Origin: a bacterium OL-1
GTDB lineage: Bacteria; Actinomycetota; Coriobacteriia; Coriobacteriales; Atopobiaceae
DNA: 24,000 nt
Assembly: GCA_000752675.2 (NCBI GenBank)
Contig: LM994625.1
Span: 130,734-154,733, forward strand
Reading direction: 5' to 3'
Below, piece by piece: positions 392 through 18,615 of this stretch. The notes beneath the pieces were generated by a model. That model saw only the letters and a list, made by a program, of their open reading frames with translations, was not told where the DNA came from and did not search any database. Numbering within the stretch: the stretch's first letter is position 1; each line of letters begins with the position of its first letter. The position numbers and the translations under genes are program-made.

Positions 392-479
392 GACAACAGC
401 CCCCCAACGGGTCGGTAACAACGAGCGAGTAAGCCGGACGGGGCAAACGGGATTATGTTGCCCGGCAAACTGATTGCAT
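392..479. repeat. Long copy of the dispersed repeat (..CGGTAACAACGAGCGAGTAAGCCGGACGGGGCAAACGGGATTATGTTGCCCGGCAAACTGATTGCAT), left copy
   Basis: By hand alignment, 413-465 matches 18072-18125 in 48 of 54 columns, in the same orientation. It ends in the short GGGATT..TTGCCCGGCAA..TTGCAT motif shared with five other sites. A 9-bp tandem (GATTGCATC/GATTGCATG) follows at 472-489. Confidence 0.7.
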
Positions 480-492
480 CGATTGCATGAGT

Positions 493-531
493 GCGCAGTA
501 CGGCCTACGTATCCAGCAGGCCGTACTGCGC
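493..531. terminator. Perfect 13-bp-stem hairpin between convergent genes (factor-independent terminator candidate, no U-tract)
   Basis: GCGCAGTACGGCC (493-505) and GGCCGTACTGCGC (519-531) are exact reverse complements with a 13-nt loop. The hairpin overlaps the stop codon and last 8 codons of the 505..699 ORF. Confidence 0.45.
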
Positions 532-699
532 GTACTTGTCGAGCATCATCTTGTAGAACATGCGGTTGGAGAAGTACTGGCGGTACGTGACCGTCTTCAC
601 CTTGCCCTCCGCCTTGAGCCTGTCCATCTCGGCCTGCTCGAACGCCGCTTGTTTCTGAACGTCCGCGAGCATCTCTTCGAACGCAGCCAGCCTGTCCAT
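505..699 (-). CDS. Hypothetical small protein (64 aa, predicted helical or coiled-coil)
   Basis: The ORF-track entry 505..738 starts at TTG. The internal ATG at 699 (MDRLAAFEEML...) is preceded by a purine-rich GGGGGTGTGACAGGA. I recognise no family. Confidence 0.4.
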   Translation of the reverse strand: MDRLAAFEEMLADVQKQAAFEQAEMDRLKAEGKVKTVTYRQYFSNRMFYKMMLDKYAQYGLLDT

Positions 700-955
700 T
701 CCTGTCACACCCCCAGTAGACGGCTCACCCCGGGACAACAGGACAGATGCGGGAGGTCTGCCCTACTCCGCCGGCTAGCGCTTGGAAACTGTCTACGCCA
801 TTCTCGCACGTTAAGCCATGGCTAGATTGCGGCTTGGGGGCTTTAGCCTCCAGGTTCGACCCTAAATAGCAAGCCGGGCTTGATGTTCCCAATTGCCTTC
901 GAAAAGTAAATTGAAATTGCCAGGCAAGGAGAACCAACAACAGAAAGGAAACGCC

Positions 956-1585
956 ATGGCTATCCAAATCAAGCGCTTTGAAGTATCGGAGAACTGCAAG
1001 GACATCGACACGGAAGCAATGCTCGCGGAGGTGGCCAAGCTTCGCGAATACGCACTGAATGGCATTGAGTCCGACTCGGACCTCATGGGGTCAATCCAGG
1101 CAATTGTGGCCTTCCAGCTGCCTGATGGGTCCTTCCCCGTGACTGTGGGCACTCCCTTGCCGTCCGACGCAAGCGTTGACCTTGTCTTCCGGCCGACCTA
1201 CTCCTGCTGCCAGGCCCTCGTCCACGCGCTGTCGCTCGGCATCAAGCCTGACGACGTTCGCGAGCCCCTCTCCCGCGGGCTAGCCGCTTGCTGCCGACGC
1301 AATCTGGAGGGACACGGCTACGAGGCCCTCGAGCGCCAGGCAGAGGACCTCGCGGACTTTGGCCATTGCGGACTTGCCAAGCTCCTCGACGAGGAGCCCG
1401 GCCTGTGCCCGGCATTCACACGCCTTGTTGGAAAGACCGTCCAGAGCTACAAGCACTCCCTCGAGACCGGCCACGTCGTCGATGCATGGGGCAAGGACCT
1501 CACGTCCAAGGTCTCGGCGGCAGTAGATGCCCTTGGCTGCGCGGACAGCAATGCACGAGAGGCCCTCTGGGCGGCTGCCGTCTAA
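956..1585 (+). CDS. Hypothetical protein, Cys-rich, 209 aa
   Basis: ATG at 956 is in frame within ORF 893..1585 and preceded by AAAGGAAAC. The QLPDGSF motif is reminiscent of prenyltransferase/terpene-cyclase alpha-alpha repeats, but I cannot assign a family. Confidence 0.55.
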   Translation: MAIQIKRFEVSENCKDIDTEAMLAEVAKLREYALNGIESDSDLMGSIQAIVAFQLPDGSFPVTVGTPLPSDASVDLVFRPTYSCCQALVHALSLGIKPDDVREPLSRGLAACCRRNLEGHGYEALERQAEDLADFGHCGLAKLLDEEPGLCPAFTRLVGKTVQSYKHSLETGHVVDAWGKDLTSKVSAAVDALGCADSNAREALWAAAV

Positions 1586-1616
1586 TGTGACCTCAGCGTC
1601 AGGCAAGTCTCGAATA

Positions 1617-1651
1617 CACTTGGTGTCCTGCCATCGGCGGGACACCAAGTG
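1617..1651. terminator. Perfect 12-bp-stem hairpin downstream of the 956..1585 CDS
   Basis: CACTTGGTGTCC (1617-1628) and GGACACCAAGTG (1640-1651) are exact reverse complements with an 11-nt loop and no U-tract. It covers the GTG at 1649 that opens the ORF-track entry. Confidence 0.45.
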
Positions 1652-1681
1652 CATCCCGTGGAGAAGGGAGTCGCGTTGAAC

Positions 1682-2269
1682 ATGGCCTTCGGAGTCCTTA
1701 GGTCGAGCGAGAACACGGCTAGACAGCGCAGGTCTGACCTTCGCGATGGCGTACGCATTGGGGACATGTGCGTGCAAGCCGATTTTGGCTACGGTGGTTC
1801 ATTCGAGTCGTCCGTGCATCCCATCATGCTGCCGCTCAACCTCTCCGAAGTCTACGTTATGCTCGTTGCCCTCAAGAAGTACGAGCTTGCCTGCGGAGAG
1901 GGCGACCCTCACGCCACGCTGGCAGCACGTTTGGCAAACATGGCATATGGCGAGCTCAGTGCCTACGCAAAGAAGAAGCTCGCTGACCGTCTCAGCGAGG
2001 CTGGATACGTTTTCCGTCCCGAGGGACCCGCATTCCGCGACGACATGCACGGGTCCTCGGAATGGGTCAAGTTTGAGAAAAGTGGCGTACGCGTAGCAGT
2101 TGAGCTGGATGAGGGCCAGTCGCTCGTGGGTGTGATTGTGGGCGTGGGCAGGTGCCGAGGTGACAAGCCAGGAGACCGTCGCCCGGGACTCACACTGCGC
2201 CTGGATGACGGAAGCGAGATATCTGTACCTTGGTCCCAGGTGGTTAGCATCGATAAGACAGAGGGGTAG
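1682..2269 (+). CDS. Hypothetical protein (195 aa)
   Basis: This is the ORF 1649..2269 frame. ATG at 1682 has GAAGGGAG about 11 nt upstream, whereas the GTG at 1649 sits inside the hairpin stem. I recognise no family. Confidence 0.5.
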   Translation: MAFGVLRSSENTARQRRSDLRDGVRIGDMCVQADFGYGGSFESSVHPIMLPLNLSEVYVMLVALKKYELACGEGDPHATLAARLANMAYGELSAYAKKKLADRLSEAGYVFRPEGPAFRDDMHGSSEWVKFEKSGVRVAVELDEGQSLVGVIVGVGRCRGDKPGDRRPGLTLRLDDGSEISVPWSQVVSIDKTEG

Positions 2270-2303: not shown

Positions 2304-2336
2304 GCGGGATTGATTTGCCGAGTAACTCAATCCCGC
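2304..2336. terminator. Perfect 10-bp-stem hairpin between convergent genes; also a palindromised copy of the dispersed motif
   Basis: GCGGGATTGA (2304-2313) and TCAATCCCGC (2327-2336) are exact reverse complements with a 13-nt loop. GGGATTGATTTGCCGAGTAACTCAATCCC resembles the GGGATTGAGTTGCCCGGCAACT.. motif. It overlaps the pepV stop codon at 2327-2329. Confidence 0.5.
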
Positions 2337-3730
2337 AGCACCGACAGCCGCTCCAAGGCACTGATGTAGGTGCAGAGCGCCCGCCTTAGCGACCCCTCAG
2401 ATGCCGCCTCGTTTGGTCCGTGTATCCCGCCGACCCAAGACGGGGTACTCTCATCGGGGTCGCCAATCGGCCCAAATCCCACGGCGTACGGAAAGCGTTT
2501 CGCATAGGTTCCGCCGCCAAGAGTTACAGGCTTGGCCGCATCGCCAAACCACTCCGCGTAGCAGTCTAAAAGCACTTGCACCTCGCGCCTCTCGGGATCA
2601 ACGTAGAGCAGCGAGCCCCTATGTACCTCTGCATACTCGACTCCGTACTCCACGCACACCTTCTCGATACCAGCGGAGATGGCATCAGGGCTAGTCGACT
2701 TTGGGTATCGGCAGTCGGTGGTCTGTACGAAATGCCCGTCCCTTGTCTCAATTGTCCCGCTAATGATGGTCAGCGGCGTGAATAGGTCGTCCGTCGCGTT
2801 GATACCAAACGCCGAGCCATCCGTGGACGAGAAGACAATGTTCTCGAACTCGAGCCATCGCCGCTCGCGCACTGAGCCAACGCCATTCTGCAGCAAGTAC
2901 CTCACCAGCACGCCAATTGCGCTCACGGTGCCTTCGGGTTCCGCTGCATGTCCACCCGTGCCCCGTGCCAGAACCTCAGACAGCCCTGCTCCGGCTGCCC
3001 TCACCGTAACGCCTTTCTCTGCCGGAAGCTCATCAGCGCTCACGCGGACAATCGCCCTGGCAGACGCGGCAACCGCATTCCTAACCGTCCCTCCGGCGAT
3101 CTCGACGATCTTCCCCTGTGAATCGCACTTCCAGGCAAGCTCGGCATTGTGAGAGCCCTTCTCACCACAAACCACGGGCCATGCAGAATCCGGAGTGAAC
3201 AGGAAGTCTGGCGCGGCATAGTTGCGAACGTACCACCGCGCGTCATCCATTCCTGTTTCCTCGTTCGCTCCAAGCAGGATGCGGACGGCCTTTCGATCTG
3301 CCGCACAGTCGTGCGTCGAAAGGAAGCGTGCTGCCCACAGCGTCAGAACAGCCGGTCCCTTGTCGTCAAGCACTCCCCTTCCCACAAGATAGCCTTCGCG
3401 CCGTTGCAGAGCGAGGGGATCCGAACTCCATCCAGGACCCGCAGGCACTACATCCAAGTGCGCGATTGTCGCCACCTGGCCATCACGCTCGCCCGGAACA
3501 TCGGCAAAGCCGATAATCCCGCCGCAGTCGTGAGCCTGGAGACCAAGCCTCGACGCCATTCTCAGCGCACAGTTGAGGGCATCCCGCGGTCCCTTGCCCC
3601 ATGGCGCATCGGGCCCTGCAGTGGCCGAATCCCCAATACTCTGAATGCTGACAAGCTCTGCGATGTCGGCAACAATCGCCGACCAGTTGTTGTCAACAAA
3701 ACGACTAATGCACTCTTTGCTTGATGCCAT
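2327..3730 (-). CDS. pepV: M20-family dipeptidase, PepV/Sapep type
   Basis: 467 aa counted from ATG 3730, which has a GGAGGG RBS 8 nt upstream. Motifs HLDVVPAG, DDKGP, GANEETG and GEKG match PepV-type M20 metallopeptidases. Confidence 0.85.
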   Translation of the reverse strand: MASSKECISRFVDNNWSAIVADIAELVSIQSIGDSATAGPDAPWGKGPRDALNCALRMASRLGLQAHDCGGIIGFADVPGERDGQVATIAHLDVVPAGPGWSSDPLALQRREGYLVGRGVLDDKGPAVLTLWAARFLSTHDCAADRKAVRILLGANEETGMDDARWYVRNYAAPDFLFTPDSAWPVVCGEKGSHNAELAWKCDSQGKIVEIAGGTVRNAVAASARAIVRVSADELPAEKGVTVRAAGAGLSEVLARGTGGHAAEPEGTVSAIGVLVRYLLQNGVGSVRERRWLEFENIVFSSTDGSAFGINATDDLFTPLTIISGTIETRDGHFVQTTDCRYPKSTSPDAISAGIEKVCVEYGVEYAEVHRGSLLYVDPERREVQVLLDCYAEWFGDAAKPVTLGGGTYAKRFPYAVGFGPIGDPDESTPSWVGGIHGPNEAASEGSLRRALCTYISALERLSVLRD

Positions 3731-5459
3731 CAGAGTTTCCCTCCAGCACCTCAAGTAGTTCCTGATACCTCATGCCGGAATGGGGAGAGGCAACGGTCCC
3801 AAGCATTGAGTAGAGGTACGAGAATATCGAGCTCTTATCCTCCTGGCGCTTGCTAACCAGCACCACGATAATCAGGCTAATGGGTTCATCCTCGACTTTG
3901 ACAGGTGTGTCAAGCGTGAGCGCAAGTAGCCGTGGCCTGTCTGCCGGCGTTAAGGTAATGCAATGCGGTACCGCAACGCCGTTGAAGCGCAGACACTGGC
4001 CCTGACACTCTCGCGCCATTATGGACGCGACCTCTTCCTTTCGGATAACTCCCCTCTCGAGGAAAAGCTCGAGGCCGCAAGAGAGCATGGAAAGATATCC
4101 GTCACCGGCAACTCCAATCTCCGCGAAGGAGACTTCGGGGAGAATGTCTGGAAGCGACGTACGGTACTGTGAGTCCGTAACTGCGCGCTTTAGAGCTGCC
4201 AAGTCTGCATCGCTCAGAATCCCCCGACAAACAAGATTCCAAGGGAGCCTCTCGAGGCCCTTGTCCGCGAAGGAGTCGTCTCTGATGAGTATCGAGTACG
4301 CACCCGTGCCATACTCCCTTTCTGCCGATTGAACGTCATACACGGAAGTAACCGTCACGTTGTCAAACGTATTCTCGAGCATGGCTCGGTTCACTGACTC
4401 AAGTGACCTTCTCCCGCAGAGCAGCAGAATCGCAAGGGACTGTCCTGTCGAGCAGAGCCCTGTACCTATCACGTAGAGGGCACAGAGCTCGTGCTCCAAG
4501 AACACGTCCTTGCGCAGTGACTCAAGGTACTCGCAGAGGTCCTGGGCAAAGTCGAACTCAATGGGATGATCTATGCGAATGCGGTTAACCTGAGTTCTAA
4601 ACTCATCTGTCATGAGCGTGGTGAACATTGCAGAGCGGGCAATGTGCTCGAACATGACGGTGGGAAGGTCGGGCCGCGATACCCTCATACCGTGTGAGGC
4701 GAGAAGATCGGAAGCTCTGCCAATCAACTCGTAGCGATGCGCAAGGAGCCACGAGTGGAGGTCGCGCTTCCTCGAGATGAGCCTGTCGATTGACGCGCGC
4801 GCAACAGTGAGCGAGAGGGGCTCTCCAAGCTCGAACGGGGCTGTGACGATTGCCGCATAGACCTGCGTGCGTGCTTCCTGGAGCGTCAGCCAGGGCTCCA
4901 TTTCCTGCTGGAAGGACTCTATCTCCTGTGACATAAGCCCGGCGGCAGTCATCCAGGGACCAGCAAGCGTCTGGAGCTCAGTGAGCACTGCACGATCGCG
5001 GGCAGCGAGCGCTGCGACAAAGTCTGCCGGTGAAGACTTCTCGAACACAACCTCTATACCCCGCCCACTCTTCATCTCGATAGAGAGCGTGCGGGAGTAT
5101 CGACGGTTTGCGGAACCAACGCATGCCCTCACGGTGGCATTCGAGAGCCCCGTGCGCTCCTCGACGTCCATCACGGTAGGACGAGGAGAGCTAAGGATTG
5201 CCAGCAGCATAGCCGTCTCATCATCGAAGACCGAGGAGAGAAGTGCATCGAGGGCGTCTTGAGACTGGATTGAGAGCCTGTAGATTGGCTCGGCCTCGAT
5301 AAGTCCGGCCCCGGTCCTCCGCAAGATGTCATTCGCCCGTGCTATGTCACGAAGTACCGTCCTCCTAGAGACGCCTAGGCGAGTGGCCAATTCGGCGCCG
5401 GATGCCGGTCCCTCTCGCAGCGCGAGCACTATAGAGCGTTCTCGACCGCTGAACCTCAT
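3705..5459 (-). CDS. PTS-controlled transcriptional regulator with HTH, PRD, EIIB-like and EIIA-like domains (MtlR/LicR/ManR type)
   Basis: 584 aa counted from ATG 5459. There is an N-terminal winged HTH (GAELATRLGVSRRTVLRDI), a second HTH-like segment and central PRD-like repeats. An EIIB(Gat)-like Cys segment (AILLLCGRRS) and a C-terminal EIIA(Mtl/Fru)-like domain with VAVPHC complete the protein. Confidence 0.8.
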   Translation of the reverse strand: MRFSGRERSIVLALREGPASGAELATRLGVSRRTVLRDIARANDILRRTGAGLIEAEPIYRLSIQSQDALDALLSSVFDDETAMLLAILSSPRPTVMDVEERTGLSNATVRACVGSANRRYSRTLSIEMKSGRGIEVVFEKSSPADFVAALAARDRAVLTELQTLAGPWMTAAGLMSQEIESFQQEMEPWLTLQEARTQVYAAIVTAPFELGEPLSLTVARASIDRLISRKRDLHSWLLAHRYELIGRASDLLASHGMRVSRPDLPTVMFEHIARSAMFTTLMTDEFRTQVNRIRIDHPIEFDFAQDLCEYLESLRKDVFLEHELCALYVIGTGLCSTGQSLAILLLCGRRSLESVNRAMLENTFDNVTVTSVYDVQSAEREYGTGAYSILIRDDSFADKGLERLPWNLVCRGILSDADLAALKRAVTDSQYRTSLPDILPEVSFAEIGVAGDGYLSMLSCGLELFLERGVIRKEEVASIMARECQGQCLRFNGVAVPHCITLTPADRPRLLALTLDTPVKVEDEPISLIIVVLVSKRQEDKSSIFSYLYSMLGTVASPHSGMRYQELLEVLEGNSDGIKQRVH

Positions 5460-6616
5460 AGGCTCCGCACCCCCGCCAAAAGGCCTTTGAGACCCTCCTC
5501 TAGTTTTGACCGCGGACATGCCACGCACATTCTCAGGTACTTGTCATCGCCGTAGGCAGCACCGTTCATGATGCCAACATGCCCCACGTGCACCAACGCG
5601 TCCTGCAAACGCGCAGCGCTCACGCCAAGTGCCGAGGCGTCCATCCAAGCAAGATACGTCCCCTGAGGAACCGAGAACCTAATCTCCGGAATGTTCGTCG
5701 AGAGGAACTCCCCAATGGCATCCATGTTCGCACGAATGTAGGAGCGCAGGTCGTCGACGTACTGGTCGCACTTGCGATAACCTGCCGATTGAGCGTACAT
5801 TCCCAGGATGCTCGTGCTAGATAGCGCGTTGCGCTGCTTGAGCTCAAAGAGAAATTCCTCACGCAGGCCCTTCTCGGGAAAGAACGCGTACGACCCAATA
5901 AGCCCAGCGGTGTTGAACGTCTTCGATGACGAGCAGGCAAGCGCGGTGTTCTTCTCGGTAACCTCTGTGATAGGCGTATAGGGCACATCGCCAATGATGA
6001 TGTCGCGATGGATATCGTCTGAGATAAGGAAGGTGTTAGTCTCAGCGCATATCGAGGCAATTCTCTGCAGCTCGGCCTTCGTGAACACCTTGCCAGTTGG
6101 ATTGTGGGGGTTGGTCAGGAGAAACACCTTTGCAAGGGGATCAGTGCATGCCCGTTCGAGACCATCCCAGTCAATCTGGTAGTCATCCATGGCAGACGAG
6201 AGGCTAACAGGAACTAGTACCCTCCCGTTTCCGCGGATAGCGCCAAAGAACGCATCATACATTGGGGAGAAGGTTACAACCGCATCCCCAGGGTTTGACT
6301 TGAGCCTGATCAGCGTTGCGACCGTAAAGATAACGCTAGGACTGTAGACAATCCATTCGGGATTGACGCGTGCCCCTCCCCTGCGGTCAAACCACTCCAC
6401 GATGGGCTGCTTGAACCCATCGTGATTCCAACGCGTATAGCCAAGTATGGGGTGGTCGAGACGACTTTTAATGGCGGTGAGAATCTCATCGGGAACCGAA
6501 AAGTCAGCATCGGAAATGGAGAAGGGAATCACGTCTGAAGACCCAAAACGGTCTGCAGCGTAATCCCACTGTGTGCAATAGGTTCCATGCCTGTCAATGA
6601 CCTCATTGAAGTCCAT
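5456..6616 (-). CDS. MalY/PatB-family PLP-dependent C-S lyase (class I/II aminotransferase fold)
   Basis: 386 aa. The N-terminus DRHGTYCTQWDY and the motifs LLTNPHNPTGKVF and SSSKTFN (PLP lysine) are typical of MalY/PatB cystathionine beta-lyase-like enzymes. Confidence 0.85.
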   Translation of the reverse strand: MDFNEVIDRHGTYCTQWDYAADRFGSSDVIPFSISDADFSVPDEILTAIKSRLDHPILGYTRWNHDGFKQPIVEWFDRRGGARVNPEWIVYSPSVIFTVATLIRLKSNPGDAVVTFSPMYDAFFGAIRGNGRVLVPVSLSSAMDDYQIDWDGLERACTDPLAKVFLLTNPHNPTGKVFTKAELQRIASICAETNTFLISDDIHRDIIIGDVPYTPITEVTEKNTALACSSSKTFNTAGLIGSYAFFPEKGLREEFLFELKQRNALSSTSILGMYAQSAGYRKCDQYVDDLRSYIRANMDAIGEFLSTNIPEIRFSVPQGTYLAWMDASALGVSAARLQDALVHVGHVGIMNGAAYGDDKYLRMCVACPRSKLEEGLKGLLAGVRSL

Positions 6617-6648
6617 ATTGCGCTCGACCCCCTTGATTTCATTGGCGA

Positions 6649-6680
6649 GCTGGCACCCGCCTCACAGGACAGGTGCCAGC
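6649..6680 (-). other. Intercistronic perfect 9-bp-stem hairpin between PTS EIIBC and the C-S lyase gene
   Basis: GCTGGCACC (6649-6657) and GGTGCCAGC (6672-6680) are exact reverse complements with a 14-nt loop. It lies in the 98-nt gap between the two genes. Confidence 0.5.
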
Positions 6681-6714
6681 GTACCAGCAATCAGTTACAT
6701 CACGAGATGACGTC

Positions 6715-8154
6715 CTATGCGGCCTGCTGCGCCTTCTCGGCCTGGCGCTTAAGCCAGATTGACTTGAAGATAATGATCAGAGCCACGTTAAGCACAAGCC
6801 CCACTGCGACTGCGATGTAGTAGGCCCACGCAGGAGAAATCAGTCCGAGAAGAGGATCGAAGATGCCAATCCCGGGGGCAATGCGCTGCACACCCAGTGC
6901 CATGGAGATTGCGCCAGCAACGCCACCGGCAATGACGTTCGCAGAAATCATTGGCAGGGGAGCGGCAAGTGCATACGGGATGGCGGGCTCGGTTGCGACC
7001 GTAGCGCCAACGATAAGTGCAGGAATCGCAGCGTCACGCTCGCCCTCGGTGAACAGGGAAGGACGAATCCAAGTTGCGATGGCGGCTGCCATGGGCGGCA
7101 GGATGGTCACAACGCCAACGATGCCATACCAGTCGTAGACGCCAGAAGCAACCAGCGAGAAGGAGAAGAACCACGCAGCCTTATTGACAGGGCCACCCAT
7201 GTCGAAGGCAAGCATGGCGCCAACCAGGAAGGCACCCGCAAGCTTTGCACCCTCAGGAATACTCGAAAGCATGACGACCAGGCCGTTCATAAGGGCAGCG
7301 GCGATGGGTCCAATGAAGTAGTAGGTCAGAAGCGCAAAGACGAGCAGACTGACAAACGGGATAATAAGGAAACCCATCAGGCCGTGCATGTTCTTAGGAA
7401 GCTGAATCTTCCTCAGGGCGTTAGCAAAGTAGCCAACGAGGATGCCGATGATCACCGCGCCAATGAAGCCGGCACCCGTCTGGGTACCCAGCAGGTCAGC
7501 GCTGTTCGCAAGGTAGGAGCAGATGAACGCGGGGGCGAGTGCGGGCTTGCCGCCAATGGACTGTGCAATCCACGCGCCCATGACGGGAACCATGAAGGAG
7601 AAGCCCAGCGAACCAATGGTGTTGAGCACCCACGCTATGGATGCAACCTGGCCATCGGCCGGCTCGATGTTGGGGGCACCAAACTGAATCATGATCGAGC
7701 CGATGGCCATGAGAAGGCCGCCGCCAATCACGAACGGCAGAGCAGCGGAAACACCAGCCATCAGGTGGTTCATGAACCCGGTCACAGCGCCGGTGCCATT
7801 ACGACCACCGAGGTCAACCGAGGTGGCTCGATACAGCTTTGCCTCTCCCTCGAGATTGCCCATCACGGAGTCGATGTTCTTCAGGGCCTCGGACACCGGG
7901 AGCTCGATGACCTTTTTGCCATCGAAGCGCACACGGTCATCCTCGTCCATACCCTTGCCAAGGGCGAGGATGACATAGTCGGCATCCTTAATCTGGTCCT
8001 TGGTCAGCTGGTTCTCGACACCATTGGCACCCTGGGTCTCGACGTGAACTTCGTAGCCGAGGGCCTCACCTTTGGTTTTAATCGCCTCCGCCACCATGTA
8101 GGTGTGCGCGATGCCAGCTGGACAGTTGGTCACCGCAACGATCGATTTGGACAT
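6715..8154 (-). CDS. PTS fructose-family transporter subunit EIIBC
   Basis: 479 aa counted from ATG 8154, preceded by an AAAGGAG RBS. The N-terminal EIIB(Fru) motif is NCPAGIAHTYMVAEA, followed by a polytopic EIIC domain. Confidence 0.9.
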   Translation of the reverse strand: MSKSIVAVTNCPAGIAHTYMVAEAIKTKGEALGYEVHVETQGANGVENQLTKDQIKDADYVILALGKGMDEDDRVRFDGKKVIELPVSEALKNIDSVMGNLEGEAKLYRATSVDLGGRNGTGAVTGFMNHLMAGVSAALPFVIGGGLLMAIGSIMIQFGAPNIEPADGQVASIAWVLNTIGSLGFSFMVPVMGAWIAQSIGGKPALAPAFICSYLANSADLLGTQTGAGFIGAVIIGILVGYFANALRKIQLPKNMHGLMGFLIIPFVSLLVFALLTYYFIGPIAAALMNGLVVMLSSIPEGAKLAGAFLVGAMLAFDMGGPVNKAAWFFSFSLVASGVYDWYGIVGVVTILPPMAAAIATWIRPSLFTEGERDAAIPALIVGATVATEPAIPYALAAPLPMISANVIAGGVAGAISMALGVQRIAPGIGIFDPLLGLISPAWAYYIAVAVGLVLNVALIIIFKSIWLKRQAEKAQQAA

Positions 8155-8221
8155 TGCCCGCTCCTTTCTACTGGCCGACAACGGTCGGCACGCCATTCAG
8201 ATAAGCCCCGTCCCCTCGTCC

Positions 8222-8674: not shown

Positions 8675-8747
8675 GTCCCCTCCCCTTCCACATGGCCTCA
8701 CCCAGCCGACGGCCAGTAAATTGAGGTGCTCCGCTTGGACTTGCCTG

Positions 8748-9312: not shown

Positions 9313-9321
9313 AAGCTCGAC

Positions 9322-9724: not shown

Positions 9725-9765
9725 ATAACAAGGTACCGAACGGCGTCGAGAGCCGAACGGTACCT
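9721..9765 (-). terminator. Rho-independent terminator of the block B operon
   Basis: AGGTACCGAACGGC/GCCGAACGGTACCT forms an 8-bp plus 4-bp stem with a 2x2 internal mismatch at 9731-9765. On the minus strand it is followed by TGTTATTTAGTTT. Confidence 0.6.
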
Positions 9766-9798
9766 CAAAGGAGTTTCCCACCGCAAGAATTGCAATAG

Positions 9799-11439: not shown

Positions 11440-11494
11440 TATGGTTTCCCTTTCCTGTAAGACAATGAGAGCAAGGAAGTGCTTTTCGGAGGGA

Positions 11495-12400
11495 TTACGA
11501 CCAATCTAGGACGTGCATGGGATTCTCCACGAGCATCCGCCAGTAGTCCTGTTCGTCAATCTCCTTGAGGAGTTGCTCTTTGAGGCCTGTGAGGATGTAG
11601 TCAAGGCCGGGCGTACCACCATATGACTTGAAGTAATTCTTCTTGCCCATGTCTCCTGCTAGGCAAACTTGGCCGCCGAAGCCAGAGCAAACAAAGTCCT
11701 TCAGTAGCGACACCCGGACGGAGTCATGCCCCACCAAATCCCTACCAACATGATCGAAGGAGAGGAACGCTCCTCTTTTCATCAAGGTTTTCATGTAGGC
11801 GGGGTCAAGAGTTAGGTCCGTGTGCGAGAGGCACACGTGCGCCAAGTTCATACCCTCAGCCTCAAGCAGGTCGAGTTGCTCCATGCCCATCGTGCCCTTG
11901 TCGCAATGCGTAATAATTGGGAGATGATGCCTGGACGCAACTTGGGCGGCGATTCTAATCGCCCGCCTCTCCCGCTCCGTGACCTTTCCCAAGGACGTGC
12001 CAATCTTGACAGCCGCCGGCTTGACCTTCGAAAAGCCTATTCCTTCTTCGATCTCGCGTGTCAGCTCGCGAGCAATCTCTGCATCAGACAGACTGTCAAA
12101 CCAACGCGGAAGCCAAAGGTCCTTGTGAAATCCCGTGACGCAGAGCACGTTGATGCCAGCTTGCTGAGATATCAAGCGGAGAGCTTCGGGATTTCGACCA
12201 TATGCAAGTGGCGTCATGTCCACGATGGTGCAGCCACCCGCCGCCTTGAACAGCTCGGCCTCCTCGATGCTTTTCGAGGGCACGTCGAGAGTGTAATCGT
12301 AGTAGCATTCGAGCTCGTCGGGAGAGACGTAGAGGTGCTCATGAATGTAGGTTGTCCCCAGGTCTTGGGGGTCAATCTCTCCGAGGACGGTGTTGATCAT
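11495..12400 (-). CDS. Phosphotriesterase-family (COG1735, PHP-like) amidohydrolase; probable phospho-sugar lactonase
   Basis: 301 aa. Binuclear-metal ligand positions all appear present: HEH (TYIHEHL), Lys in AAVKIG, His in ITHCD, His in LSHTD and Asp in LAGDMG. The start lies 6 nt after the dgoD-like stop. Confidence 0.8.
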   Translation of the reverse strand: MINTVLGEIDPQDLGTTYIHEHLYVSPDELECYYDYTLDVPSKSIEEAELFKAAGGCTIVDMTPLAYGRNPEALRLISQQAGINVLCVTGFHKDLWLPRWFDSLSDAEIARELTREIEEGIGFSKVKPAAVKIGTSLGKVTERERRAIRIAAQVASRHHLPIITHCDKGTMGMEQLDLLEAEGMNLAHVCLSHTDLTLDPAYMKTLMKRGAFLSFDHVGRDLVGHDSVRVSLLKDFVCSGFGGQVCLAGDMGKKNYFKSYGGTPGLDYILTGLKEQLLKEIDEQDYWRMLVENPMHVLDWS

Positions 12401-12406
12401 GGCTAC

Positions 12407-13552
12407 CTACCATTCCGCTATGGTTCCGTCATAGTTCTTCCAGCTGGGATTTCTCCAGACAAGGCCCTCGGCAGAAACCGCCTTTACTATCTCCTCGTCG
12501 ATTTCCAGTCCCAGCCCAGGCCCGCTGGGAACATCAACGTATCCGTCCGAATACTGAAAGACCTCTTTGTTCTTAACAAAGTCGAGAAGATCGAAGCCCT
12601 GATTGTAATGGATGCCTAAGCTCTGCTCCTGAATGAACACGTTGGGTGAGCACGCATCGACCTGAAGGGTTGCAGCAAGAGCGATGGGCCCATAGGGAGC
12701 GTGAGGTGCAGCAGCCATATCGAACGCCTCGGCCATCGCGATAATCTTACGCATCTCGAGGATGCCCCCGCAGAGCGACACGTCTGGCTGGATAATATCA
12801 ACTGCCCCCTGCACAAACAGGCGCTTGAACTCCCAGCGCGAATACAGGCGCTCTCCCGTGGCGATAGGGATGGGTACCTCCCGGGAGATGTCATCAAACG
12901 ATTCCCAGTTCTCCGGAAGAACAGGCTCCTCAATGAACATGGGGTGATACGGGGCAAGGGCATACGCGAGAACCTTTGCCATTGGCTTGTGGACGCGGCC
13001 ATGGAAGTCGATACCGATTTCGATTTCGTTCCCGCAAGCACTCCGGATTGACTCTACCCTGTCGACAACCTGCTGAACCTTGTCGTAGGTATCAACGTAA
13101 TGAAGCTCTTCCGTTGCGTTCATCTTCACGGCGCGGAAACCCTTCGCCAGCCTGTCCGCGGCGCCATTCGCGACATCAGACGGCCGGTCCCCGCCAATCC
13201 AGGAATATACCCGCACGCGGTCGCGCGCCTTCCCTCCCAGAAGCTGCCAAACTGGGACGCCGAGAGCCTTACCCTTGATGTCCCATAGCGCCATCTCGAG
13301 TCCAGAAACAATGGTCCCGTTAATCGGGCCACCACGAAAGAAGGATCTGTGCAGCTCTTGCCAAATCCTCTCAATCTCGAAGGGATCGCGACCGATGATT
13401 CGCTGGGAAAGCTCCCTTGCTCCCTCGACGACTGTTCGCGTTTTGGTCCCTGAGACCATTTCTCCCCACCCGCTGACACCCTCGTCTGTCTCGACCTTGC
13501 AGAAAATCCATCTTGGTTTTACCTCGTAAATCTGAACTCCGGTGATCTTCAT
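12407..13552 (-). CDS. dgoD: D-galactonate dehydratase-like enolase-superfamily enzyme
   Basis: Similarity to E. coli DgoD (recalled from memory) runs end to end: MKIT..., ETDEGV.GWGE, ALWDIKGK, VWQLLGG, DFHGRV, MFIEEP, ATGER, IIQPD, APH.PYGPIALAA, QEQSLGIHYN, LLDFVKNKE, WRNP and the C-terminal AEW. I prefer ATG 13552 (GAGGA 5 nt upstream) over ATG 13558. Confidence 0.9.
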   Translation of the reverse strand: MKITGVQIYEVKPRWIFCKVETDEGVSGWGEMVSGTKTRTVVEGARELSQRIIGRDPFEIERIWQELHRSFFRGGPINGTIVSGLEMALWDIKGKALGVPVWQLLGGKARDRVRVYSWIGGDRPSDVANGAADRLAKGFRAVKMNATEELHYVDTYDKVQQVVDRVESIRSACGNEIEIGIDFHGRVHKPMAKVLAYALAPYHPMFIEEPVLPENWESFDDISREVPIPIATGERLYSRWEFKRLFVQGAVDIIQPDVSLCGGILEMRKIIAMAEAFDMAAAPHAPYGPIALAATLQVDACSPNVFIQEQSLGIHYNQGFDLLDFVKNKEVFQYSDGYVDVPSGPGLGLEIDEEIVKAVSAEGLVWRNPSWKNYDGTIAEW

Positions 13553-13633
13553 TGCCATCCTCGCTATTCGTTGGAAAGAGAGGGGCAGAGCGTGATGCTC
13601 CGCCCCTCATGCGGGTACTGCGTGTATAGGGAA

Positions 13634-14902
13634 CTAGGCAAGGAAGCCTGCGAGCCACTGCAGGCAGAAGCCGATAAGGTGCTCGCCAGCGTCCTCGGTG
13701 GAGATGAACTGCATGCCATCGGGGAGTACGAAGCCGCCGGCAATCGCGAGCTGGGTATGAACCGGCGCAAGGGCGGTAGCAATCCACAGCACGATGCAGG
13801 TAATAATGGTCGTGGAGAGAATACCACGGAAGATGTTGCCCTTACCAAACGCAACAGGCCACGCAGCGAGCCACATCGCCTGGTAAGCAATATCGGCGAT
13901 GGGGAGAAGCTTGTTGCCGGGCAAGACTGCAGCAAGCAGGAGCGTGATAGGAACCATGATGATTCCAACCGTGATGGCGGACTCATTGGCGACGGTCAGG
14001 GCAGCGTCGATACCCATTACGAAGTCGGTACCGGGGAAGCGCTTCTGGAGAATCTCCTTCACGGCGTTTGCGAAAGGAAGGAGACCTTCCATGAGAATCT
14101 GCATCATCTTGGGGGTGAGGACCATCGTTGCGGAGGTGCTCATGGCAACGATAAGGACCTTGTCAATCGAGTCGCCTGCCAGAAGGCCGATTGCCGCGCC
14201 GATGATGAAGCCCATGAACATGGGTTCACCGACGAAGCCGAACTTCTCCTGAACTCCCTTGGGGTTGATGTCGATCTTGTTAATGCCGGGGATGACATCC
14301 CAAAGCTTGTTCAGCGCGTATGCAACCGGAGCCCAGATTGCGGAGTTAGAGGTCGGGAAGTTGACACCCTCGAGCTCGAAGTAATCTTCGACGACAGGAG
14401 TGGTCCAGTCCGCAATCTTGATTGTGATGATGAAGTCAACAGCAGAGGCGATGATGGAAATCCAGGGATTGCCATTGGTGGCATACCAAACCAGAGCGCC
14501 TGTGAAAATGAAGTGGTTATAAGACCAGAAGTCGACCATGACCGTCTTGGTCGTCTTGGTAATCAACATGAGGGCGTTCACGCCGAGAACGACGAAGACA
14601 ACAATTGCGGCAAGGGGGAACGCCCAGGTCGCAGCGGCCCTAGCGGGCCATCCCACATCCATGATGGAGGTCTGGATTCCCCAGTTCGCAACCATGTTGG
14701 TTACGGAATCGGCGACCTGGGCAACAAACCAGTTGATCACCATGTTGACGCCCGCGAAGCCAATACCCACCAGCAAGGCAGACTTTAGTAAAACATTGAT
14801 TTTCACACGGAAGATGAGGCCGAGAATCAAGATGATGATTGGCATCATGACCATAGGACCCATCGAAGCGATGGTTTGGAGACCAGTTACCACAAAGTCC
14901 AT
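13634..14902 (-). CDS. PTS galactitol-family EIIC permease (GatC/SgcC-like)
   Basis: 422 aa, polytopic, with an AGGAGG RBS. The overall sequence has EIIC-GAT family character (my recognition, not a search). Confidence 0.8.
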   Translation of the reverse strand: MDFVVTGLQTIASMGPMVMMPIIILILGLIFRVKINVLLKSALLVGIGFAGVNMVINWFVAQVADSVTNMVANWGIQTSIMDVGWPARAAATWAFPLAAIVVFVVLGVNALMLITKTTKTVMVDFWSYNHFIFTGALVWYATNGNPWISIIASAVDFIITIKIADWTTPVVEDYFELEGVNFPTSNSAIWAPVAYALNKLWDVIPGINKIDINPKGVQEKFGFVGEPMFMGFIIGAAIGLLAGDSIDKVLIVAMSTSATMVLTPKMMQILMEGLLPFANAVKEILQKRFPGTDFVMGIDAALTVANESAITVGIIMVPITLLLAAVLPGNKLLPIADIAYQAMWLAAWPVAFGKGNIFRGILSTTIITCIVLWIATALAPVHTQLAIAGGFVLPDGMQFISTEDAGEHLIGFCLQWLAGFLA

Positions 14903-14932
14903 TGCGTCTACCTCCTAGGTTGCAGTTTTCGC

Positions 14933-15232
14933 TTACGCCTTAAGCTGAGCCTCTATTTCGGCCTTTGCCTTATCCTCGCCAACTCCCGTGACGAAGGCAG
15001 TCCCCTTAATTACGGGCGCATCTCCCGTCTCCACACCCTTGAGTTTGCCCGTAGGAACAATGAAATCCACGTGATTCGAAGCGAGGTTGCCCTGAACCTC
15101 GGAGAACTTGCACTGAATAATGCGAGGCTCAGGCGCACCACAAGCAGCGGCAATTTCCTTCACCTTGGCAACCGCCATAGTCGACGTAATCATCGATGAG
15201 GCGCAGCACACGATAACCGTCTTTTTCTCCAT
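14933..15232 (-). CDS. PTS EIIB component (galactitol/lactose-type small IIB)
   Basis: 99 aa with an N-terminal Cys motif KKTVIVCCASSMITS and a GGAAGGG RBS. Confidence 0.8.
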   Translation of the reverse strand: MEKKTVIVCCASSMITSTMAVAKVKEIAAACGAPEPRIIQCKFSEVQGNLASNHVDFIVPTGKLKGVETGDAPVIKGTAFVTGVGEDKAKAEIEAQLKA

Positions 15233-15245
15233 GCTTTTACCCTTC

Positions 15246-15692
15246 CTAATTGAATAGCTCTATTACCTGTTGCGCGGAATCGGCGTCAGCGATTTGTGCA
15301 ACGAGTTCCTGGTTTTGCAAGACACCCATAATTTTCTGAAGGGCTTCAAGCTGGTGCTCGGGCTTATCGAACACGGAAAGAACAACCACGCTTACCGGAA
15401 TCGACTCATCAGAGTCCTCCATGTTGTGCCACTCGACTGGCTTCTTTAGCGTTGCGACCAGCAGCTGAGTGGTATTTGCGTACTGGTAGTCGGTGTGGGG
15501 AATTGCGACGTTGATGCTTCCGAGGGCGAGCCCCGTCGGATATTCCCTCTCCCGGCTCACCAGATGTTCCTCGTAGGATTGCTTAACCTTGCCCTCGCCA
15601 AAGAGGTGGGTTGATACCAGGTGAAGAACTTCCTGGCAGCTCTCTGCGTCAATGTTGAGGAGAATGTCCTCTGGAAAAAGATTGAGTACCAT
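15246..15692 (-). CDS. PTS EIIA component (PTS_EIIA_2, GatA/mannitol-fructose type)
   Basis: 148 aa with the His motif NVAIPHTD and a GGGAGG RBS. Confidence 0.8.
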   Translation of the reverse strand: MVLNLFPEDILLNIDAESCQEVLHLVSTHLFGEGKVKQSYEEHLVSREREYPTGLALGSINVAIPHTDYQYANTTQLLVATLKKPVEWHNMEDSDESIPVSVVVLSVFDKPEHQLEALQKIMGVLQNQELVAQIADADSAQQVIELFN

Positions 15693-15714
15693 CGGAACTT
15701 AGCCTCCCTACCCG

Positions 15715-16344
15715 CTACCAACGGACCTTCTGCTCGAACGCCTCAATGTCGGCCTTAAGCGCACCCTCATCCATCTCGATGATGTGCTTGGGATCGAAGA
15801 TGCCGGACCCGATGCCGGCATATGAGGCACCTTCGTCGAAGAACTCCTGGCAGTTGTCACCATTCACGCCGCCAACAACCATGATTGGCATGGGATTAAG
15901 AGGGGCCTGGATGTCCTTGATGTACTTTGGGCCAAGCGTGCCTGCGGGGAAGACCTTCACGATGTCCGCGCCCATCTCGAACATGTTCCAGACCTCAGAA
16001 GGCGAGAAGGCCGAGGGAACGGTTAGAAGGCCGTTTGCCTTGCAGATGCTAAAGATCTCCTCGGTAAAGCAGATTGGGGAGAGCGCGAAGCGAGCCCCCG
16101 CCTCGACGGCCGCGTAAGCACGCGCAGTAGAGATGACGGTTCCCGCGCCGACGAGAACGTCATCGCCAAACTCATTTGCGACTTTCTCGATGGTCTGGGC
16201 CGCACCGGGCGTGTTCATCGCAACCTCAACGGCGCCCAGCTTGGTTCCGACCATGCTCTTCACAACGCATCGAACTTGTTCGTAGTTGTATCCGCGAAGA
16301 ATGACCGTCACCTTGGGAAACTTTGTAAGACTGAGGTCTATCAC
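15715..16344 (-). CDS. eda: 2-dehydro-3-deoxy-phosphogluconate/phosphogalactonate (KDPG/KDPGal) aldolase family
   Basis: 209 aa with a GTG start at 16344 and AGGAGGG 5 nt upstream. It has the Eda-type motifs VEVAMNT (Glu), GAGTV and the Schiff-base Lys in VKVFPA. Confidence 0.85.
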   Translation of the reverse strand: MIDLSLTKFPKVTVILRGYNYEQVRCVVKSMVGTKLGAVEVAMNTPGAAQTIEKVANEFGDDVLVGAGTVISTARAYAAVEAGARFALSPICFTEEIFSICKANGLLTVPSAFSPSEVWNMFEMGADIVKVFPAGTLGPKYIKDIQAPLNPMPIMVVGGVNGDNCQEFFDEGASYAGIGSGIFDPKHIIEMDEGALKADIEAFEQKVRW

Positions 16345-16700
16345 GTCTTCCCTCCTGCTTTCGATATTTGTGATGCAAGCTAGGAATGTATTTATCTTGC
16401 TTGTTGCTCATATTTGAACATAGTTTCATCACATTAACAAGCAGTGTTTTAGAAAAGGCATTATTTGTATTTAATTAGGGGTATTTGTGGCATTTTAACT
16501 GCGTGTTTGAAATTTAATATGTATATTTTTCTTTATGAACGATTATTACTACATAGTTTCTACATATAATTTTGCTCACCAGACACACGTATGTCTGCGA
16601 GTAATTGATTAATTTTACTATGAAGGTGAATAACCTAATTCTTCGGAGTGGAGGCCCTCCGGCGCTTGTGCATTGCTCCTCAAGAGCATGGCACCATGCC
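16345..16700 (-). promoter_or_regulatory. AT-rich leader and promoter region of the block B operon, with phased direct repeats and a palindrome
   Basis: GC is about 30% in my count of 16441-16500, against over 50% in the flanking genes. CTACATA-GTTT-CTACATA sits at 16549-16566, ACATAGTTTC recurs at 16418-16427 and 16551-16560, and the palindrome CAGACA-cacgta-TGTCTG is at 16580-16597. Several -35/-10-like pairs are possible and I cannot resolve them by eye. Confidence 0.55.
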
Positions 16701-17711
16701 CTACTCGCTATCTGCCGACTGTCCCATCACCATCATGGACTCATACAGGTGCTGGGGGGTTATGGGATCCGGTGGTTCGACGCCAGACTTAACAGCAAGG
16801 ATGTTGTCCACGACGATATTGCCCATCCGGCGGCTACTCTCGTAGGTATTGCCCGCCACGTGCGGGGTAACGAGCACGTTGTCGTAGTCGTAGTAGGGCT
16901 GGTGCTCTGGCGGCTCCTTGGAGAAGACGTCTATCGCAAAGCCTGCAAGCCTCCCCGACTGGAGCGCGCTGTCAAGCGCGCCATGGCGCACGATCCCCGC
17001 GCGGGCGGTATTGATGAGAATGGCACCCGGTTTCACAAGCCTAAGCTCGCGTGCACCAATGAGGTTCTTCGTCGACTCATCAAGCGGAAGGTGAATCGTA
17101 ATGATGTCTGATCTTCTCAGCAGGTCATTCAGTGTGGTGTAGACAACGCCATAAACCGTTGCCTCATTGCGTTGCACAATGTCGTAGCCCAGGATGTCCA
17201 TGCCGAAACCCATGGCCCTGCGGGCGACGGCGCATCCAATCTGCCCGACGCCGATGATGCCGATGGTCTTGCCGTATAGGCTCGTGCCCGTCAGCTTGGT
17301 CCAGCCGCCCGACCGCGTGTCTATGACCATCTGCGAGATGTGCCGCTCCAAGTCGAGAATGAGCCCAAACGTGAAGTCCGCAGTCTCCTCGCGGTTAGAC
17401 GCAGGGGCATACGTGACCTCGATGCCCAGGTCACGGGCCTCAGCCACGTCCACACCGTCAAAGCCGACACCGTAGCGTGCGATGATCTTTAGCTTCTTGA
17501 GCCGCCGGATAACGCTAGCGGGCAGGTCATCGTTGCCGAGAATGATGGCATTGGCATCTCCCGCAAAGTCCAACATCTCCGCCTTTGTCAGCGGACGCCC
17601 ATAGGGATTGAGTCGAACCTCGCAGCCGGCAGCCTTAAGACGCTCGATGGGTTCGTCCGAACCGCGCCCAAAGGTCACAGCAGTAGAGCAAACAACCCAA
17701 TTGGAACCCAT
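16701..17711 (-). CDS. D-isomer-specific 2-hydroxyacid dehydrogenase (phosphoglycerate dehydrogenase/GhrB-like), NAD-binding
   Basis: 336 aa with the Rossmann motif GIIGVGQIGCAVARRA. The catalytic-region motifs ILINTARAG and TPHVAG are present, and GGAGAA precedes the ATG at 17711. Confidence 0.85.
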   Translation of the reverse strand: MGSNWVVCSTAVTFGRGSDEPIERLKAAGCEVRLNPYGRPLTKAEMLDFAGDANAIILGNDDLPASVIRRLKKLKIIARYGVGFDGVDVAEARDLGIEVTYAPASNREETADFTFGLILDLERHISQMVIDTRSGGWTKLTGTSLYGKTIGIIGVGQIGCAVARRAMGFGMDILGYDIVQRNEATVYGVVYTTLNDLLRRSDIITIHLPLDESTKNLIGARELRLVKPGAILINTARAGIVRHGALDSALQSGRLAGFAIDVFSKEPPEHQPYYDYDNVLVTPHVAGNTYESSRRMGNIVVDNILAVKSGVEPPDPITPQHLYESMMVMGQSADSE

Positions 17712-17874
17712 GTCATTCTCCGCAGGATGTTGGTGTGGCGGCGTGAGGTCAAGTCACTGCCCAGATACCCCCATATAATAATGGAGAAAGCCACGAGAGA
17801 GACATTCCCACCGTCATGGTCGGAAGCCTTCACAGAAACTTTTTCAGCGCCAAAGCACTGCCCTCAAGATGAGC

Positions 17875-17905
17875 GGGGTTGAGTTGCCCGGCAACTGAGC
17901 TGCGT
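17875..17905. repeat. Dispersed motif copy GGGGTTGAGTTGCCCGGCAACTGAGCTGCGT, with an exact 15-bp palindromic core
   Basis: AGTTGCC-C-GGCAACT at 17882-17896 is a perfect palindrome. It has the same orientation as the other copies. Confidence 0.65.
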
Positions 17906-17963
17906 TGATGGGCCTTGTTACCGGGCCGTCGCGATGCCCGAGCGTTTTCCCAGGTAACAGCAC

Positions 17964-18017
17964 AGTCCCCCAACGAGCCGGTAACAACGGCAATGGCCGC
18001 GTGGCGGTTGTTACCGG
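17964..18017. repeat. Partial copy of the long-repeat 5' part, fused to an 11-bp-stem hairpin
   Basis: AGTCCCCCAACGAGCCGGTAACAACGG (17964-17990) resembles 398-424. CCGGTAACAAC (17978-17988) and GTTGTTACCGG (18007-18017) are exact reverse complements with an 18-nt loop. Confidence 0.55.
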
Positions 18018-18045
18018 CCAGCAGCTTTCGCCAGACCTCACCTGC

Positions 18046-18139
18046 GAAAACAGCCAGCTGACAAGACGGGCCGGTAACAACGGGCGAGTGAGCCGGACGG
18101 GTGCAAACGTGATTGAGTTGCCCGGTTATGAGCCTATGT
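18046..18139. repeat. Long copy of the dispersed repeat, right copy
   Basis: 18072-18125 matches 413-465 in 48 of 54 hand-aligned columns. GAAAACAGCC at 18046-18055 matches GACAACAGCC at 392-401. It ends in GTGATTGAGTTGCCCGG. Confidence 0.7.
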
Positions 18140-18607: not shown

Positions 18608-18615
18608 TGAATTTA

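Follow-up and report, generated by a model that had tools for sequence, protein, structure and literature searches.

The window analysed here, to which all unprefixed coordinates refer, is a 24,000-nt stretch of a genome contig of bacterium OL-1, a member of the Coriobacteriia (LM994625.1, positions 130,734 to 154,733). Its subject is a segment (392-18139) that is bracketed by two long direct repeats, here called copy A and copy B, within the interval running from a threonine aldolase gene (ltaE) to a tRNA-Met gene. The original prediction had taken these repeats for the borders of a composite island, built by serial insertion at a single attachment (att) site that they themselves represent. 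The analysis reported below favors a different reading, to which a probability of roughly 0.7 is assigned: the long repeats belong, as paralogous copies, to a modular intergenic family resembling repetitive extragenic palindromic (REP) elements, rather than the scars of one island, and the interval is a tRNA-linked plasticity zone. The features of the locus, assigned by Pfam scans, ARAGORN, and Rfam, are the following:

1-347, plus strand: 3' end of the threonine-aldolase-like (Beta_elim_lyase) gene, left core flank
378-481: copy A, composite repeat in its short form, between the convergent aldolase gene and orf64
505-699, minus strand: orf64, encoding a small coiled-coil-like protein of 64 aa, conserved backbone gene
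956-2269, plus strand: two hypothetical genes (209 and 206 aa), kept in all strains examined
2303-2337: REP-like hairpin GCGGGATTGA..TCAATCCCGC at a convergent gene junction, marking the left limit of the variable region
2327-8701, minus strand: module 1, with M20 peptidase, helix-turn-helix (HTH)/EIIA regulator, aminotransferase, and phosphotransferase system (PTS) EIIBC and EIIA genes (Pfam)
8849-8899: REP-like array of two units
8923-9312, plus strand: remnant of an ORF6N-domain gene (PF10543, E=6e-21, model positions 2-50 of 86 only)
9321-9354: single degenerate REP-like unit within window-specific filler (9251-9379)
9437-9724, plus strand: C-terminal remnant (pseudogene, 95 aa) of a tyrosine integrase, weak Pfam match (E=0.006)
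9799-17711, minus strand: module 2, with genes for an IlvD/Edd-type dehydratase, a phosphotriesterase-family protein, an enolase-superfamily protein, PTS EIIC-GAT/IIB/EIIA, 2-keto-3-deoxy-6-phosphogluconate (KDPG) aldolase, and 2-hydroxyacid dehydrogenase (Pfam)
17861-17905: REP-like unit with 5' flank CCTCAAGATGAGCG
17905-18124: copy B, composite repeat, comprising the right arm of unit 1, a complete unit 2, unit 3, and a truncated REP core
18140-18247, minus strand: parE toxin remnant, its first ~17 codons joined to the 3' end, as judged against the intact phd-parE of L008
18248-18511, minus strand: phd/yefM-type antitoxin gene that has lost its toxin (PF02604, E=1.8e-7)
18519-18608: conserved flank 3' of the tRNA, holding AATACTGTT direct repeats and a terminator-like hairpin and marking the right limit of the variable region
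18609-18661, minus strand: 53-bp 3' part of the tRNA plus 7 nt, att core of the sister-strain island
18616-18692, minus strand: tRNA-Met (CAT) of the initiator type (ARAGORN and Rfam)
18817 onward, minus strand: haloacid dehalogenase (HAD) hydrolase and M20 genes, right core flank

The two PTS operons, the ORF6N remnant, and the integrase fragment had been named from the open reading frames alone, and Pfam bears them out. The GC drop within the interval is moderate. The bracketed segment has a GC content of 0.568 (0.578 in module 1, 0.554 in module 2), compared with 0.642 in the left core, as measured in L218, and 0.647 in the right core, and GC content at third codon positions (GC3) lies at 0.61-0.72 within the interval, as against 0.85-0.88 in the right core. 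The four 60-nt counts behind the original prediction (0.483, 0.533, 0.650, and 0.633) are exact, but they overstate the contrast relative to averages over the whole interval. The 3' end of the aldolase gene has a GC content of 0.63 and a GC3 of 0.75, and orf64 a GC3 of 0.91.

The long direct repeat is real, and its copies stand in the same orientation. Local alignment of 390-465 with 18043-18125 yields 67 identical columns out of 82 (82%), with three indels and a score of 86, compared with 17.7±2.6 (maximum 27) for 200 dinucleotide shuffles. An earlier hand count of 48 identical columns in 54 agrees with the 33/36 plus 20/23 (53/59) found around a 1-nt indel, and repeat-finding likewise links 396-465 to 17962-17989 and 18066-18125. 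The right copy had been placed at 18046-18139; it exists, but its homology to the full-length ltaE-side copies of other strains spans 17905-18124 and stops at 18124, not at 18139. A full copy measures ~280 bp and consists of four parts: a leader, CCTCAAGnnGAGCG (consensus CCTyAAGnnGAGCG); two tandem units of ~93 nt; a third, related unit; and a REP-like cap. The ~93-nt units are built on an 11-bp inverted repeat, CCGGTAACAAC...GTTGTTACCGG, and the cap consists of 20-nt palindromic, REP-like units of the form GGGATTnnnTTGCCSGGCAA, often closed by nnnAATCCC. An nhmmer profile of the ~93-nt unit matches every array at E=1e-18 to 1e-24, with matches at 17910-17959 and 17963-18052 in copy B. The ~93-nt period escaped Tandem Repeats Finder owing to the strong divergence of the units and was shown by MAFFT and nhmmer instead.

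Copy A of the window is a one-unit form, in which the 5' part of a unit is fused to unit 3 and followed by the REP-like cap; it lacks the 186 bp between two CCGGTAACAACG repeats. On the ltaE side, a single unit is present in the window and in nine of the ten strains L218-L227, two units in L007, and three in L227, L132, and L077, and the full form of copy A stands beside the aldolase gene in L227, L132, and the sister lineage (L077, L194, L197). Unit number changes by recombination between internal repeats, because one-, two-, and three-unit alleles share this one site. Whatever fills the interval, no strain examined lacks copy A, and the sister lineage has it too. Copy B is present in L165 and absent from L005, L007, L008, and L171, and in the window it is placed inside a 620-bp indel (17899-18518), not at its edge, together with the orphan phd. 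Copy A is a resident of the convergent intergenic region between the aldolase gene and orf64, and copy B lies downstream of a decayed phd-parE pair. Over 214 bp, copy B is 87.9% identical to copy A of L227 and 89.3% identical to copy A of L077; full-length copies share 83-89% pairwise identity, and the repeats overall are 82-89% alike, compared with 97-99.9% for the orthologous flanks.

Copy B ends in a REP core truncated after TTGCCCGG, where a ~100-bp deletion between CCGG microhomologies separates the window from L165 and L008. In L165, the ~200-bp body of hairpin units carries the same ~35-bp REP unit on both sides, and L008 has a single unit at that place. The phd gene is absent from L005 and L007; the parE remnant was compared with L008 11480-11797, and parE is more complete or whole in L008, L171, and L165. 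The possibility that orf64 is a relative of phd/parE, with the repeat forming part of a duplicated cassette, was considered; orf64 bears no likeness to these genes by eye and has no Pfam match. It is present in 1128 blocks of the collection and is found in the sister lineage (L077). The aldolase gene at full length encodes 350-361 aa (PF01212) in L218-L227.

About 25 related contigs were obtained through look-ups with three window proteins and compared with the window by BLAST, and the interval takes eight architectures among them. The window type is shared by L003, L009, L010, and L232-L234. In L001, L006, and L228, 11458-15702 of module 2 is swapped for other genes, and in L004/L222/L230 a type I restriction-modification system stands in place of module 1, with breakpoints at 2335 and 9451. 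L007 and L163 lack 8900-18518; L005 lacks 17899-18518 and has a full-length ORF6N gene; and L008 has an intact phd-parE pair and a REP array but no hairpin units. The two remaining architectures involve the tRNA itself, at which contig_6319 (L002, L219, L229) combines the window type with a 26.9-kb island and L171 carries a 2.1-kb islet with a Fic-domain gene. All strains examined, and the sister lineage too, keep the stretch 482-2335 with orf64 and the two hypothetical genes, and 2335-18518 is exchanged piecemeal across strains, with indels of 8900-18518, 17899-18518, and 2336-9450 relative to the window. The gain or loss of the whole 17.6 kb as a unit was seen in none of these contigs. The interval is filled differently among strains but is not filled or emptied as one block, and the view that everything between the repeats is accessory applies to the variable remainder and not to 482-2335.

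The limits of these exchanges fall into 11 breakpoint classes, six of them in REP or hairpin units (407/423, 2335, 8899, 9250/9380, 17895-17898, and 18124) and five outside such units (9451, 11457/15703, 18185-18207, 18519, and 18609). Homology with the window stops at 2335 in L222, where the restriction-modification system takes the place of module 1; exactly at 8899 in L007 and L163; and at 17895-17898, within the REP-like unit 17861-17905, in L005 and L008. It restarts at 18518-18525 in L005, L007, L008, L163, and L171, and this common right breakpoint is the edge of the conserved tRNA flank. The swap of 11458-15702 looks like an allelic exchange by homologous recombination within the operon. 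The dehydratase and aldolase genes beside it are 99% identical, and the replacement (L001 13914-19440) contains a second 2-hydroxyacid dehydrogenase, a zinc alcohol dehydrogenase, and other IIB and EIIC-GAT genes. The ORF6N gene at full length encodes 326 aa in L005 and L237, the window copy being short by ~720 bp.

The att site used at this locus is documented in the sister strain. Perfect 53-bp direct repeats (510424-510476 and 483498-483550 of contig_6319) flank the 26.9-kb island, the match between contig_6319 and the window ends 7 bp beyond the tRNA 3' end, and the distal 53-bp copy, 26.9 kb away, precedes the normal tRNA-downstream flank and phd. An intact tyrosine integrase of 433 aa (PF00589, E=1.6e-12) is encoded 277 bp from the distal repeat, beside an HTH_17 gene, and the tRNA-proximal end of the island carries CopG-like and NikA/MobC-like genes, an IS21 helper gene, and a type I restriction system. 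Serial insertion at the long repeats is not upheld by this arrangement, the att site being the 3' part of tRNA-Met and unrelated to them. Copy B ends 492 bp from the tRNA and shares nothing with it or with the 53-bp core, in keeping with the earlier observation that the repeats are not tRNA-derived and that the second copy lies ~0.5 kb from the tRNA gene. Read by eye, the tRNA has the three G:C pairs in the anticodon stem (GGG/CCC) that are characteristic of initiators, and a U1·G72 end pair. In the window there is no second tRNA-derived att copy, either for a 32-mer at ≤3 mismatches or for 25-mers of the 53-bp core at ≤5 mismatches. The distal tRNA 3' repeat with its adjoining tyrosine integrase is thus a property of contig_6319 and not of the window, which has a single copy.

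Tandem repeats of GGGAGGAATTT(T) occur near both ends of the 26.9-kb island (L002 11060-11095, L229 9700-9735) and are candidate arm-type integrase binding sites. Two direct repeats of AATACTGTT(T/A)C stand at 18519-18560, exactly where variable content starts, with variants in both copies of a duplication in L171; they may be protein-binding sites of an att region. The L171 duplication, the second of att type at this locus, spans ~140 bp (window 18518-18660, the 3' half of the tRNA plus flank) on either side of the 2.1-kb insert, and the insert (527-2621) encodes a 394-aa protein with a Fic motif recognized by eye, HPFTDGNGRTGR, and a small membrane protein.

The integrase fragment in the window belongs to the same family as the sister-strain enzyme. 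Aligned over 89 aa, its 129-aa version in L004 matches residues 344-432 of that intact integrase at 74% identity (E=1e-35); identity at the DNA level is 84%, and the window remnant is oriented relative to the tRNA as the intact gene is. The motif HELRHT now reads HELQRT, and DIYSH reads DIHSD; in tyrosine recombinases, such changes remove the catalytic arginine and the tyrosine nucleophile, and the 95-aa remnant is accordingly predicted to be catalytically dead. The suggestion of integrase decay agrees with this replacement of Tyr and Arg. Strains differ in the cargo that they carry at the one tRNA, which includes PTS operons, type I restriction-modification, phd-parE, the Fic-domain islet, and the mobilizable island, and the expectation of a strain-variable, lower-GC interval at a tRNA-linked integration hotspot is borne out by the strain comparison.

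Short copies of the repeat motif had been reported at internal module borders. These copies are genuine (8849-8899, 9321-9354, and 17875-17905), the 15-mer motif matching the window seven times at ≤3 mismatches against 0.96 expected, and a further copy at 2303-2337 had been missed. The palindrome has a TTGCCSGGCAA core between GGGATTnnn and nnnAATCCC arms (e.g., 2303-2337; L005 6184-6260; L007 17894-17943). It is thus a short, imperfect, hairpin-capable palindrome, and it is extragenic and occurs singly or clustered in alternating orientation, in arrays of one to four units on both strands. The six window clusters are all intergenic, that at 2303-2337 reaching no more than ~10 nt into the end of the M20 peptidase gene and, in L007 and L227, comprising two units. 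At L005 6184-6260 and L008 6099-6175 (both between BcrAD-type and HAD genes) and at L007 17894-17943, arrays run to as many as four units. The variable triplets of the arms were inspected for covariation, and the arrays proved nested and the triplets without simple pairing.

The interpretation of the short motifs as island borders is not supported by their distribution, as REP-like units also occupy intergenic sites that are not borders or are unrelated to the locus (2303-2337; L005 6184-6260; L123/L169, L151/L217, L196, and L216). These unrelated-site contigs, of 7-14 kb, hold one REP-like cluster each, and a metagenome scan with the REP 20-mer found the family on at least about 13 Coriobacteriia-like contigs, most of the listed matches being single chance matches in unrelated coding DNA; viral contigs gave four isolated matches. 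The REP-like family is dispersed but apparently sparse. The unit-3 17-mer CGGTAACAACGRGCGAG, a pattern specific to unit 3 whose count does not bear on the copy number of hairpin units in general, matches 85 times across 185,579 representative genomes. By BLAST, 84 of these matches are chance 17-mers and one is genuine, namely the ltaE-side copy of L077 (a metagenome-assembled genome labelled Olsenella sp.), so that the long repeat itself is not present in high copy. The 93-nt unit is found at three loci in the sequences examined, the third upstream of a TetR gene in L005.

At that third locus, L005 1-560 holds an array of at least four hairpin units (CCGGTAACAAS...STTGTTACCGG), and the site is polymorphic, with unrelated sequence there in L008. 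A comparable alternation concerns the slot bounded by the stop codon of a 1562-aa BcrAD/BadFG-type gene on one side and the ribosome-binding site of a HAD gene on the other, which is occupied either by a ~6-kb module (pyruvate-formate-lyase (PFL)-like enzyme, activase, GntR, and PTS EIIBC; L001 262-6263) or by a 75-bp REP-like array (L005 6184-6260, L008 6099-6175), with no REP remnants beside the module.

Taken as paralogous modular copies in a tRNA-linked plasticity zone, the repeats and the interval can be accommodated in a simple scheme. Tyrosine-integrase islands would enter at the 3' end of tRNA-Met, as seen in the sister strain, and module 2 of the window may be supposed to have entered in the same way because the integrase remnant is related to the sister-island enzyme. 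Older cargo would then have been eroded by deletions, replacements, and allelic exchanges, many of them ending in REP-like palindromes. The palindromes would act as dispersed homology patches or hairpin-prone fragile sites that favor deletions and exchanges, and REP-like repeats would accumulate since dispensable junction DNA tolerates them; the palindromes might also serve as terminator or insulator hairpins at operon ends. Several observations sit less easily with this account. Copies A and B do not cluster by locus or by lineage in their pairwise identities of 83-89%. The window has a single att core copy, with no relic showing that module 2 came in through the tRNA. With RNA fold z-scores of -1.1 (minus strand) and -2.4 (plus strand), copy B appears too weakly folded for a structured RNA, and a terminator or RNA role gains no support from these predictions. 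Lastly, the REP-like family looks sparse and enriched in the variable interval, with six clusters in the 18-kb interval and none in ~21 kb of adjacent core in most strains, which leaves room for a more specific link with recombination.

The original prediction, under which a composite island has the long repeats as its left and right att sites (attL/attR), with the short motifs being att relics of serial integration at that same sequence, draws on the direct orientation of the two copies around lower-GC DNA, on the presence of short motifs at several module junctions struck by strain breakpoints, and on the integrase remnant within the interval. It is largely refuted, and very little weight can be given to it, on the strength of how att sites are organized at this locus. 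The integrase family found here uses the tRNA 3' end and its 53-bp core rather than the repeat motifs, the intact island ends without a REP-like unit, and the two 53-bp copies in the sister strain are perfect, whereas copy A matches copy B at 82% identity, with three indels, and the repeats at large are 82-89% identical with indels between flanks at 97-99.9%. Neither repeat coincides with the integrase target, copy B lying 492 bp from the tRNA and sharing nothing with it. The enclosed segment does not come and go as a unit leaving one repeat behind, 482-2335 being inside the bracket and conserved in all strains and the sister lineage; copy A is independent of what fills the interval, and copy B is internal to an indel. 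No functional integrase adjoins either end, the 95-aa remnant with its Tyr to His change being ~9 kb from either repeat, and the motifs occur at unrelated sites too. A dedicated recombination system, such as a Y1/HUH transposase or an IS110-type recombinase using the REP-like palindromes as crossover sites to insert, delete, or swap operon-sized cassettes, is a more specific proposal, and insertion sequences are documented to target REP elements (Tobes and Pareja, 2006; Wilde, 2003; both as cited in PMC7771070). Six of the 11 breakpoint classes are at or in REP or hairpin units, one of them (18124) at the very centre of the core, between TTGCCCGG and CAA; the same ~35-bp REP unit is found on both sides of the hairpin-unit body of L165 and singly in L008; and the six clusters of the variable 18 kb are matched by none in about 21 kb of core. 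The proposal is nevertheless unlikely to be correct. The window and the flanks examined contain no gene for such a recombinase, with no REP-associated tyrosine transposase (RAYT, a Y1 transposase) gene in ~60 kb around the locus; the ~100-bp CCGG microhomology deletion relative to L165 and L008 accounts for the 18124 junction; the exchanges at 9451, 11457/15703, and 18519 involve no REP; and the PFL module that replaces a REP array has no REP remnants beside it. Its fuller version, in which the palindromes are recognition or crossover sites of a putative recombinase, the ~230-bp hairpin body is one module, and the interval is an array of whole-operon cassettes, would be still harder to credit.

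The long repeat could also be a transcript element, such as a 3' untranslated region, a terminator, or a small structured or antisense RNA, common to orf64 and phd-parE and kept for that role. The reverse complement of the repeat lies directly downstream of a small minus-strand gene in both copies, the element forms strong nested hairpins (plus-strand z of -2.4), and it is 83-89% conserved across lineages. This function is nonetheless improbable. On the minus strand, the fold z-score is only -1.1; the stems are sequence-conserved and so give no informative covariation; and unit number varies freely between one and three, the element being dispensable downstream of phd-parE (L008, L171). In gathering and permissive searches of the window with Rfam 15, only the tRNA reaches threshold, and the repeats have no Rfam family, their sole match being a sub-threshold, chance mir-449 hairpin (19-25 bits against a gathering score of 60.4). 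An integron cassette array was likewise considered for the interval; it has no IntI, its modules are multi-gene operons, and the cores read GTTGCCC/GTTGTTA instead of GTTRRRY.

As a family of paralogous modular repeats, these elements resemble several described classes. Like the REP elements and bacterial interspersed mosaic elements (BIMEs) of Enterobacteria and Pseudomonas, they include short imperfect palindromes of ~20-35 nt that are extragenic, often lie at gene 3' ends or between convergent genes, stand singly or clustered in alternating orientation with strain-variable unit number, and coincide with points of rearrangement or insertion. Unlike them, they are unrelated in sequence, reside in a high-GC Gram-positive Coriobacteriia host at apparently low copy number in the sequence sampled, have no RAYT transposase within the ~60 kb around the locus, and include a longer hairpin unit of ~93 nt. 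In having variable internal units between fixed ends, they recall the BOX elements of Streptococcus pneumoniae (boxA, boxB n times, boxC) and the ERIC, RUP, and Correia repeats, and they share with BOX and with repeats similar to miniature inverted-repeat transposable elements an intergenic location, strong predicted hairpins, and length polymorphism between strains at one site. They differ from these in showing no sequence similarity, no recognized terminal inverted repeats with target-site duplication, and a 93-nt unit at only three genomic sites so far.

The sister-strain island, for its part, conforms to tRNA-targeting integrative (mobilizable) elements in having a 53-bp repeat at both ends, a distal integrase, an HTH_17 excisionase-like gene, and MobC/NikA-type genes, and the window, with a decayed integrase from that family and with older cargo lying farther from the tRNA, resembles tandem island accretion at a tRNA. 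The window departs from such elements in lacking a second att copy and in having only a dead 95-aa integrase remnant, and the flagged repeats are not part of that system. Structured imperfect palindromes between co-oriented modules, with a toxin-antitoxin pair among these, are reminiscent of integron attC sites and cassette arrays, but there is no IntI and no attI, the modules are 6-8-kb operons with their own promoters rather than single promoterless open reading frames, and the palindromes have neither the R''-L''/L'-R' organization nor the GTTRRRY core of attC. Both tRNA-linked island hotspots and REP-like repeats are well-known kinds, and the locus does not represent a new kind of system; what may be novel is this modular REP/BOX-like repeat family in a gut Coriobacteriia lineage. 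A literature search on REP elements or genomic islands in Collinsella found no published description of the family.

The main value of the analysis is therefore a corrected annotation and a documented att site. Direct repeats around low-GC DNA near a tRNA are easily taken for att sites, and here strain comparison corrects such an assignment. The locus also documents the variation of sugar-uptake operons, restriction systems, and toxin-antitoxin genes at a single hotspot in a very common human-gut bacterium, and the repeat family could provide strain-typing markers and may bias the sites of rearrangement.

Some further features of the window concern its other genes. The second hypothetical gene is called at 147, 167, or 206 aa across strains, differing in start and length, and in L077 a 336-bp extra segment (3079-3414) at window position 1681/1682 gives a 318-aa open reading frame. 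The largest direct-repeat family of the window (18949-18999, 19779-19829, and 22656-22706, at 69-76% identity) corresponds to three paralogous Cof-type HAD hydrolase genes. All related strains part from the window at 23509, and the minus-strand frame at 23510-24000, which reads ...KVEHPFLIVKRRFGHLRTRYRG..., resembles by eye the C-terminus of an IS5-family transposase, a likeness that suggests a strain-specific insertion sequence separating the third HAD gene from the PTS EIIBC gene of the PFL module.

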